Below are positions 17,632-18,322 of a stretch of DNA of 64,000 nucleotides, one piece after another. The stretch is from an uncultured Clostridia bacterium (GTDB lineage Bacteria; Bacillota; Clostridia; Christensenellales; QALW01): assembly GCA_934434555.1 (NCBI GenBank), contig CAKRZX010000011.1, positions 3,620 through 67,619 of the forward strand, read 5' to 3'. A program made the position numbers and the translations under genes. Positions within the stretch are counted from its first letter, which is position 1. The number at the start of each line of letters is the position of its first letter. Below the pieces are notes generated by a model. It made no database searches, had not been told where the DNA came from, and saw nothing but the letters and a program-made list of their open reading frames with translations.

Positions 17632-18322
17632 ATGGAATACAGAAAATTCGGCAATACGGTTAGGGTTGCGGCACCTATCCAAACCACGCCTTAAACCGAT
17701 TCTTTTTCCGCTTTTCTGCGTTGCCGAAACTTGAAATACTCCCGGTATTCCTTCGCTCCGCCGCCTTGAAAAACGAAAAAATAATTCGGTTTAAGGTCGG
17801 AGATTCGTAAAAATGTGCAGATACAAGGAAAAGCGGTGAGATAATATAGGGAAATATATAAGCCGCTTTGACGCCGTAGATGTGCGTTTTTTGCACATTT
17901 GAACGGGTTCGGATGGGTGTCGTAACCCTATTGCGCGTATAGACAGGGGCGAAGAGATTCTCGAAAGCGTAAAAAGAATTGCTTTGGCGGAAAATATAAA
18001 ACTGGCGTCGGTAAGTGCCCTTGGCGCGGTTGACGATTTTACTGTCGGCGTCTATAATGTGGACGAAAAAAAGTATTATTCAAATAATTTTACGGGCAGT
18101 TTTGAAATTGTATCGCTTACGGGAACGATAAACACAATGAACAATGATTTCTACGCCCATTTGCATATGAGCGCGGGCAACGGCAAAGGCGAAGTGTTCG
18201 GCGGACATCTTAATAAAGCCACGGTCAGCGCAACCTGTGAAATGGTGATAACCTTAATAAACGGCAGAGTTGACAGAGAATACGACGAAATAACGGGACT
18301 TAATCTGTTTAAGTTCGTGTAA
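17632..18322 (+). pseudogene. PPC/DUF296 (AT-hook-associated PCC-type) domain protein, split by a 266-bp TIR element
   Basis: ATG 17632 encodes MEYRKFGNTV, then the element follows. Removing 17663-17930 (268 bp, which also corrects the frame 1 to frame 2 offset) gives MEYRKFGNTVIARIDRGEEILESVKRIALAENIKLASVSALGAV.. , a canonical DUF296 N-terminus. Confidence 0.75.
17663..17928 (+). mobile_element. MITE-like non-autonomous element, copy 2 (TIRs, TA target duplication)
   Basis: Left end GGGTTGCGGCACCTATCCAAACC; reverse complement of right end GGGTTACGACACCCATCCGAACC (19/23 match). Flanking TA at 17661-17662 and 17929-17930. It shares internal blocks with copy 1, e.g. CTTGAAATAC(G/T)CCCGGTATTCCT. 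Confidence 0.65.

Follow-up and report, generated by a model that had tools for sequence, protein, structure and literature searches.

Within the window, by which is meant the whole stretch of 64,000 nucleotides that was analysed, a PCC/DUF296 gene on the plus strand is interrupted after its tenth codon. The gene opens with ATG(17632) GAA TAC AGA AAA TTC GGC AAT ACG GTT, encoding MEYRKFGNTV (17632-17661), and the window sequence continues as A/GGGTTGCGGCACC...GGTGTCGTAACCC/TA/TTGCGCGTATAGAC, where the slashes set off an insert and the TA that follows it. The TA at 17661-17662 is followed by GGGTTGCGG.... The insert, 17663-17928, lies in a TA that spans codons 10 and 11; it splits the gene and shifts the frame. 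The parts of the interrupted gene are the following.

17632-17661, plus strand: first 10 codons of the PCC/DUF296 gene (MEYRKFGNTV), read from the sequence; this N-terminus is identical in the intact 140-aa homologues P0007 and P0011
17661-17662, no strand: target TA, left copy of the duplication; the empty alleles L054-L056 have a single TA at the same place
17929-17930, no strand: target TA, right copy of the duplication, from comparison with the empty alleles
17931-18322, plus strand: remainder of the PCC/DUF296 gene, codons 11-140 and the stop codon, with the reading frame still intact

In the preliminary description the gene had been reconstructed by removing 17663-17930 (268 bp, the insert and one TA), and this reconstruction is correct to the base. 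It yields a 140-aa ORF, MEYRKFGNTVIARIDRGEEILESVKRIALAENIKLASVSALGAV..., that matches Pfam PF03479 (PCC) with E=1.7e-35 at profile positions 2-116 of 117. Alignment of the reconstructed junction with intact DUF296 homologues, a test that had been set beforehand, was passed: among 5.8 billion proteins searched there were many intact 140-aa proteins with 92-96% identity to the reconstruction over 100% of its length and no gap at the junction. The sole difference of P0001-P0003 from the MEYRKFGNTV N-terminus is at residue 10, where V is replaced by L. The same search returned P0082 (112 aa), which is the downstream gene fragment as called by gene finders in insert-bearing assemblies.

The contigs encoding the intact protein (L054-L056) provide the empty alleles, which read ...GGCAATACGCTTA/TTGCGCGGATAGAC... 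with one TA only. Their junction is AATACGCTTA/TTGCGCGG, and uninterrupted alleles of gut metagenomes read ...ACGCTTA/TTGCGCGG.... Contigs encoding the fragment (L057, L058, L184 and L191-L196) have this 266-bp insert in the same place. Filled and empty DUF296 alleles are both present in human-gut metagenomes, and the difference between them is exactly the element and one TA. Insertion at a TA, claimed earlier from the letters of the window, is thus confirmed by alleles with a single TA, and the claim of a split PPC/DUF296 gene by the same alleles together with the intact homologues. The site of insertion in turn forms a short palindrome (GCAATA-CGGT-TATTGC in the empty allele; 17651-17662 and 17929-17934 in the window), and the TA used is the start of its 3' arm. 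Upstream of the split gene are two adjacent metallo-beta-lactamase-fold genes, 15630-16421 and 16433-17242, and the L057 orthologues of both have precomputed Pfam matches to PF23023 (Anti-Pycsar Apyc1) and Lactamase_B.

The window contains a further member of the same element family in another gene; it is referred to as copy 1 and the insert in the DUF296 gene as copy 2. Their parts are listed below.

17663-17928, no strand: copy 2, a 266-bp non-autonomous element (long form) without a conserved ORF; absent from the empty alleles, RNA fold z-score -6.55, no Rfam match
17663-17688, no strand: copy 2 terminal stem, left arm (the terminal inverted repeat of the preliminary description); pairs with 17903-17928
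17689-17793, minus strand (the structured strand): copy 2 hairpin unit A with the apex GGAATACCGGGAGTATTTC; covariance model R1, 98 bits, E=3e-23
17799-17903, plus strand: copy 2 hairpin unit B, degenerate and opposite in orientation to unit A; R1, 28 bits, E=1e-4
17903-17928, no strand: copy 2 terminal stem, right arm; pairs with the left arm
5481-5754, no strand: copy 1, same family, 274 bp, flanked by TA at 5479-5480 and 5755-5756; splits a 272-aa DUF4259-like gene (5264-6358)
5505-5609, minus strand, and 5624-5727, plus strand: copy 1 hairpin units, R1, 76 and 53 bits, respectively

Copy 1 is inserted in the same manner. The empty alleles L059-L061 read GACGTTA/AAGAACAGG (GACGTTA/AAGAAC), and the intact 272-aa protein P0121 is 98% identical to the reconstructed host gene. 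A 10-bp duplication, TTATGCATAA, was considered for copy 1 and rejected, as the empty alleles show TA and the palindromic TTATGCATAA at both ends is the terminal stem. For each copy, exact insertion with TA duplication follows from the direct DNA comparison with empty sites. The regions 17632-18322 (DUF296/PCC) and 5264-6358 (DUF4259-like) are accordingly to be regarded as single genes split by mobile inserts, not as pairs of short ORFs; among human-gut strains, alleles with and without the inserts are both in circulation. In other assemblies, L062 (1164-2121) and L063, an N-terminally short 206-aa homologue of the copy-1 host gene is preceded by a 337-bp gap, in which the covariance model detected no element.

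The relationship of the two copies, proposed earlier on the basis of shared internal blocks, is secure. The blocks are present far beyond chance. A 23-nt block, CTTGAAATAC[G/T]CCCGGTATTCCT, occurs only at 5546 and 17730, with 0 occurrences expected by chance, and the similarity of the copies, the other test set beforehand, is significant; their pairwise alignment has a mean column identity of 74%. Moreover, in the entire 64 kb the R1 covariance model, which was built from other genomes, recognises only these two elements (98, 76, 53 and 28 bits). The inverted terminal repeats of copy 2 match at 19 of 23 positions, as described before; when the TA is counted, 25 nt are complementary at 84%. Within each copy the two ends pair; between the copies the outer ends show no relation in sequence (TGCATAAGAGAACCGA... 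vs GGGTTGCGGCACCTATCC...). Copy 2 encodes nothing beyond short unconserved ORFs.

Both window copies are of the long form, in which two units of ~105 nt in opposite orientation are closed by a terminal stem of ~26 bp. Nearly all the Clostridial long forms searched have this minus-then-plus pair of units and the ~26-bp stem, and they fold equally well on both strands, with one correctly oriented unit per strand. Unit B of copy 2 scores weakly (28 bits) relative to the equivalent unit of copy 1 (53 bits), and the inner stem of unit A has more mismatches than that of the L057 copy, which together suggest decay of copy 2. Strains that share copy 1 (L187-L190) differ from the window at 0 of 819 nt of the host gene and at 4-7 of 274 nt of the element; the differences cluster at CCTCAAC[A/G]AA[T/G]CTC(G)[G/A]AC in the 3' arm of unit A. 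Such differences next to an identical host gene could be due to local instability or to misassembly of a repeat.

The family extends far beyond the window, to at least ~170 loci in Clostridia, Bacteroidota, Acidobacteriota, Myxococcota and environmental metagenomes. A scan for the core in one genome per species gave 53 loci, of which ~47 are real, from Clostridia MAGs, Oscillospiraceae, Dysosmobacter, a Rikenellaceae MAG, Acidobacteriota, an Archangium MAG and a Bacillota isolate. A scan of metagenomes gave at least 120 matches from varied environments, including microbial mats. The MAGs JAZNSH, JAZULU and JAZQII each have at least 9-12 matches at unrelated sites. In the L014 subfamily, which is found in three Clostridia MAGs, near-identical 277-bp elements, TA/TAGCCGAAGGG...CCCTTCGGCTA/TA, are flanked by TA on both sides in eight of ten complete copies, at unrelated and mostly intergenic sites; many copies lie at contig ends in the three MAGs, as is expected of multi-copy repeats. 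Terminal inverted repeats occur in all subfamilies, and their outermost sequences differ completely between subfamilies, as they do between the two window copies (TGCATAAGAG... vs GGGTTGCGGC...).

Most members lie just past the 3' ends of genes, and genic copies are rare. Where both neighbours were called, 20 copies lie between convergent and 2 between divergent genes. Orientation relative to the neighbouring genes is mixed; the ratio of 9 to 2 among co-directional pairs is not significant. This bears on the earlier remark that both window copies are inserted in the sense orientation. The remark is true, but it carries little information, because the elements are quasi-palindromic dimers with one unit on each strand, because two of two copies would be co-oriented by chance with a probability of 0.5 to 0.25, and because orientation is mixed throughout the family.

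Further variants were encountered among the relatives. A GC-rich subfamily of ~183 nt (L096, 2880-3240; also L085, L115 and L036) possesses an extra side hairpin, and in one case a copy apparently lies within the 3' arm of another, the two cores being ~129 nt apart in the same orientation. In two Oscillospiraceae assemblies (L004, 1477-1735, and L045) a truncated element, consisting of the inner hairpin only, adjoins a glmS ribozyme (Rfam, 68.7 bits). In the L014 family (e.g. L025, 5444) the terminal arms read GGGTTCGATTCCC / GGGTTCGGCTCCC and resemble a tRNA T-arm; a tRNA-like origin of the GGTTCGA-like arm was rejected, since ARAGORN calls nothing in the elements.

The short form of the element is a single rod-shaped hairpin. 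Its apex, GGAAUAC-CGGGN-GUAUUUC, is nearly invariant across phyla, and the asymmetric internal loops beside the apex (5' CAAGGCGC / 3' GCAACGCAG) are well conserved. The stems vary freely between lineages with retention of pairing. Automated location of the ends with RNAfold was noisy in GC-rich flanks and was replaced by a TA-anchored test. Of the 99 distinct segments from metagenomes among the matches listed, 40 combine clean flanking TAs with a terminal stem that is well paired. Since the palindromic controls CG and GC, which occur inside stems, score in this test as well, its informative results are the length peak and the target context: 36 of the 40 short forms measure 160-162 nt between the TAs, and 27 have the context CTAG.

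Conservation of the structure was assessed with two alignments. In a model-based alignment of 67 distinct units, which favours pairing since it was fitted to the model, 91.8% of the cells are paired, compared with 64.9% in shuffles and 37-50% with slid partners, and compensatory changes, spread over the full length of the arms, occur in 33 of 37 pairs. An independent MAFFT alignment analysed with RNAalifold gave the same structure, with compensatory changes in 30 of the 37 pairs. There is a strong strand specificity in the pairing, which is rich in G·U. Of 94 metagenomic units among the matches listed, 82 favour the strand reading GGAAUACCGGG in folding energy by more than 5 kcal/mol, and one shows the opposite; every short form taken from the genome collection likewise favours the GGAAUACCGGG strand, several of them by roughly 20-28 kcal/mol. 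RNAalifold assigns -35.8 kcal/mol to the GGAAUACCGGG strand and -3.3 to the other. Single mismatches in the inner stem that are A·C on the other strand are G·U on the GGAAUACCGGG strand. A coding reading of the conserved core (reverse strand, ..QEYREYFK.. or ..AGIPGVFQG..) was rejected, as the flanking 'codons' covary as a stem and neither a conserved frame nor a conserved start is present.

Searches for relatives of the element and for an enzyme that mobilises it gave the following results. With Rfam, at gathering and at permissive thresholds (E up to 10), no intron, ribozyme, HEARO, IS605 or 6S match was obtained in the window, both copies, one short form and 17 related loci. No match was returned by blastn of the element against plasmid and phage collections or by two scans of viral contigs for the core motif. 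A full-text literature search for the core retrieved only eukaryotic 5S rRNA primers that share an 11-mer, a coincidence. None of the Pfam families reported for the ORFs of the window is a transposase. Around the ~170 copies no recurring neighbour ORF was found, apart from spurious ORFs running through the element and unrelated AraC paralogues, and within the family itself no ORF is conserved or recurs. A terminal-repeat search of the retrieved loci, outside the known copies, disclosed no autonomous IS with matching ends. A pair of inverted matches 2.4 kb apart in L141 was examined as a candidate autonomous element and rejected, since the two are separate elements that flank housekeeping genes.

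Based on these observations, it is concluded, with a probability of about 0.72, that 17663-17928 is a bacterial MITE, a transposable element that is non-autonomous and duplicates TA, that was probably mobilised by an IS630/Tc1-mariner-type system and that split the gene. Assignment to the class of bacterial TA-MITEs is based on precise insertion with TA duplication, multiple dispersed copies, the lack of coding capacity and inverted termini. The element has the other attributes of a MITE as well, being non-coding, smaller than ~300 bp and documented by filled and empty sites; ends shared with an autonomous IS are the one attribute that was looked for in the retrieved loci and not found. Insertion at TA with a 2-bp TA duplication is also the mark of IS630/Tc1-mariner elements. 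Among well-characterised prokaryotic families, no other is known to have an obligatory TA target duplication, and IS630, the founding member of this family, prefers CTAG. In view of the obligatory TA targeting and duplication and of the CTAG preference, the element would most likely be mobilised in trans, by cut-and-paste at TA, by a DDE transposase of the IS630/Tc1-mariner type. The hairpin would be kept by selection on a single-stranded form, which may be a transcript, as in ERIC and Correia elements, or an ssDNA state. IS630/Tc1/mariner elements insert almost exclusively at TA, which is duplicated, with occasionally imperfect flanks (PMC2170065), and a known class of bacterial MITEs has 5'-TA-3' ends, duplicates its target site and is transcribed into long stem-loops (PMC2229807).

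Some observations run counter to the MITE reading. The apex, far from the ends, is invariant and the termini are variable, which is the reverse of the usual conservation in MITEs. The variable termini, which a DDE transposase with paired HTH motifs should recognise, would argue against a single cognate enzyme, and strand-specific G·U pairing would be superfluous for double-stranded cut-and-paste. The length of 160-162 nt, kept despite sequence turnover, suggests a structural ruler. According to an alternative that we consider unlikely, the element moves as, or through, a folded single-stranded form (ssDNA, a cruciform or a dumbbell), and an enzyme that may be host-encoded and widely conserved binds the apical domain and cuts or joins at the TA of the stem foot. 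Such a mechanism is kept alive by the want of a partner, as no element-linked transposase was found around ~170 copies; by the constancy of the apex and internal loops from phylum to phylum, against termini that may vary as long as they pair; by the fixed distance between the TAs; and by the strong strand asymmetry of pairing. The long form, with one correctly oriented unit per strand, would also be accounted for. Arguing against this mechanism is that we know of no single-strand transposition system that targets or duplicates a bare TA or CTAG, and that the searches described above yielded no candidate enzyme. Moreover, TA duplication is the textbook signature of IS630/Tc1-mariner elements (PMC2170065), and selection on transcripts, for which ERIC and Correia elements are precedents (PMC2229807), explains the G·U strand bias equally well and would be the conservative explanation. 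A highly conserved, covarying structure with a conserved loop would also be expected of an immobile resident locus, either a gene for a structured non-coding RNA or a cis-regulatory element. However, the precise presence or absence of the element, with TA duplication, in two unrelated ORFs contradicts such a reading, as revealed by the empty-site alleles, and the occurrence of multiple copies at unrelated sites within genomes, with no consistent gene neighbourhood or orientation, makes it hardly tenable.

Under the preferred reading as a MITE, the DUF296 gene has most probably been inactivated in this strain, or yields fragments only. Near the 3' end of the element no in-frame canonical start codon was found, the first being a TTG at codon 29. 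Translational bypass was rejected for lack of matching take-off and landing codons and because the gap measures 268 nt. Both gene halves are nevertheless open in all four occupied haplotypes, which is mildly unexpected for a dead gene, and close occupied haplotypes differ by 6 synonymous versus 1 non-synonymous changes and by 5 versus 2. Between the window and L184 there are differences at 39 of 423 positions in the gene (9%) and at 8 of 266 in the element (3%). In a comparison of window 17590-18322 with L184, L186 and L055, the L184 gene is closer to the empty alleles than to the window, and the 1 kb downstream of the split gene shows different haplotype relationships again. Since gene, element and downstream kilobase give differing relationships, the locus is a recombination mosaic, and the synonymous excess is therefore not attributable to selection after insertion; dN/dS is suggestive but was rejected as proof of a functional split gene.

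These haplotypes bear on the possibility that the element behaves like an intron. It would then be excised either from the mRNA, through self-cleavage with ligation or through the action of host RNases and a ligase at the hairpin foot, or from the DNA in part of the population, and the DUF296 gene would stay functional. The intact gene halves and the variation of the copy 1 element leave this possibility a small but non-zero probability. The mostly synonymous differences and the presence of one and the same insertion in alleles with 9% divergence in the gene and 3% in the element are in line with it, the terminal stem would join the two junctions in space, and a dimer would function in either orientation. 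Several findings nevertheless make it improbable. No group I, group II or known ribozyme family in Rfam matches the element, the overwhelming majority of the family lies between genes, at their 3' ends, and the synonymous excess could have been imported by recombination with empty alleles. Unit B and the inner stem of unit A of copy 2 are decaying relative to the L057 copy. Furthermore, we know of no bacterial precedent for splicing of mRNA by excision of a hairpin. On a further reading, which is conceivable but doubtful, the family would not be an ordinary MITE defined by transposase ends. It would be a rod of ~161 nt, common to several phyla, whose apical domain would be recognised by possibly host-encoded machinery acting on folded ssDNA or RNA, with the TA cut or joined where the stem begins. 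In the Clostridial dimer each strand would have a functional unit of its own, and genic copies would persist because precise removal from DNA or RNA leaves the host gene usable.

Four groups of known systems come closest to the element. The Correia/NEMIS, ERIC/IRU and RUP MITEs are also small and protein-less, have terminal inverted repeats ending in 5'-TA-3' and duplicate the target; the whole element forms a stem-loop in transcripts, they are mostly intergenic and co-transcribed and only occasionally lie in genes, and for most of these families, too, no transposase is known (PMC2229807). In contrast to them, the present family, which has no sequence similarity to any of the three, occurs in several phyla rather than in one genus or family. 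It conserves the apical hairpin and not the termini, has a fixed length of 160-162 nt and a dimeric long form of 266-277 bp, and its strand-specific, G·U-rich pairing has been quantified. With IS630/Tc1/mariner elements and their MITEs it shares insertion at TA with duplication and an occasional imperfect flank on one side (ISY100, PMC2170065; RUP with IS630-Spn1, PMC2229807). Unlike them, it yielded no cognate IS with matching ends in the loci retrieved, and it has no conserved termini and no transposase gene in the window or beside the copies. A preference for CTAG, as in IS630, is a further point of agreement.

Integron attC sites, IS200/IS605 ends and the attP hairpin of CTX phage resemble the family in that the stem structure is conserved over the sequence and folding is much better on one strand. 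They differ in having no TA targeting or duplication, in bearing their conserved boxes at the foot of the hairpin rather than at the apex, and in having known recombinases, and none is a free-standing dispersed repeat of 160 nt. All three, the last of which is used by XerCD, would be analogous in logic to the structure-recognising mechanism considered above. As in IS200/IS605-derived PATE and integron attC-like substrates, strand-specific hairpins are present; what further characterises those substrates, insertion beside a specific sequence of 4-5 nt with no target duplicated or else recombination at R-box (GTT) sites, is replaced by TA on both sides and palindromic CTAG. Group I, group II and IStron introns in bacterial protein genes also split an ORF that is restored exactly by removal of the insert. 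By contrast, the present family has no Rfam intron or ribozyme match, covariance models detecting no group I or II catalytic core in both copies and the short form; it is flanked by a TA duplication, is mostly intergenic and occurs in both orientations to genes.

The insertion in the DUF296 gene is ordinary in kind. What is new is the family. It is uncatalogued, being neither in Rfam nor in the literature searched, has an unusually wide distribution and is distinctive in structure, with an apical hairpin that is invariant, arms that covary, a length that is fixed and pairing specific to one strand; its interest exceeds that of a routine MITE. Being so widespread and conserved in this pattern, it offers, through phylogenetic co-occurrence, a good handle for identifying an enzyme that mobilises bacterial TA-MITEs such as Correia and ERIC. 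It also permits a test of whether hairpins of this kind function as DNA, RNA or both.
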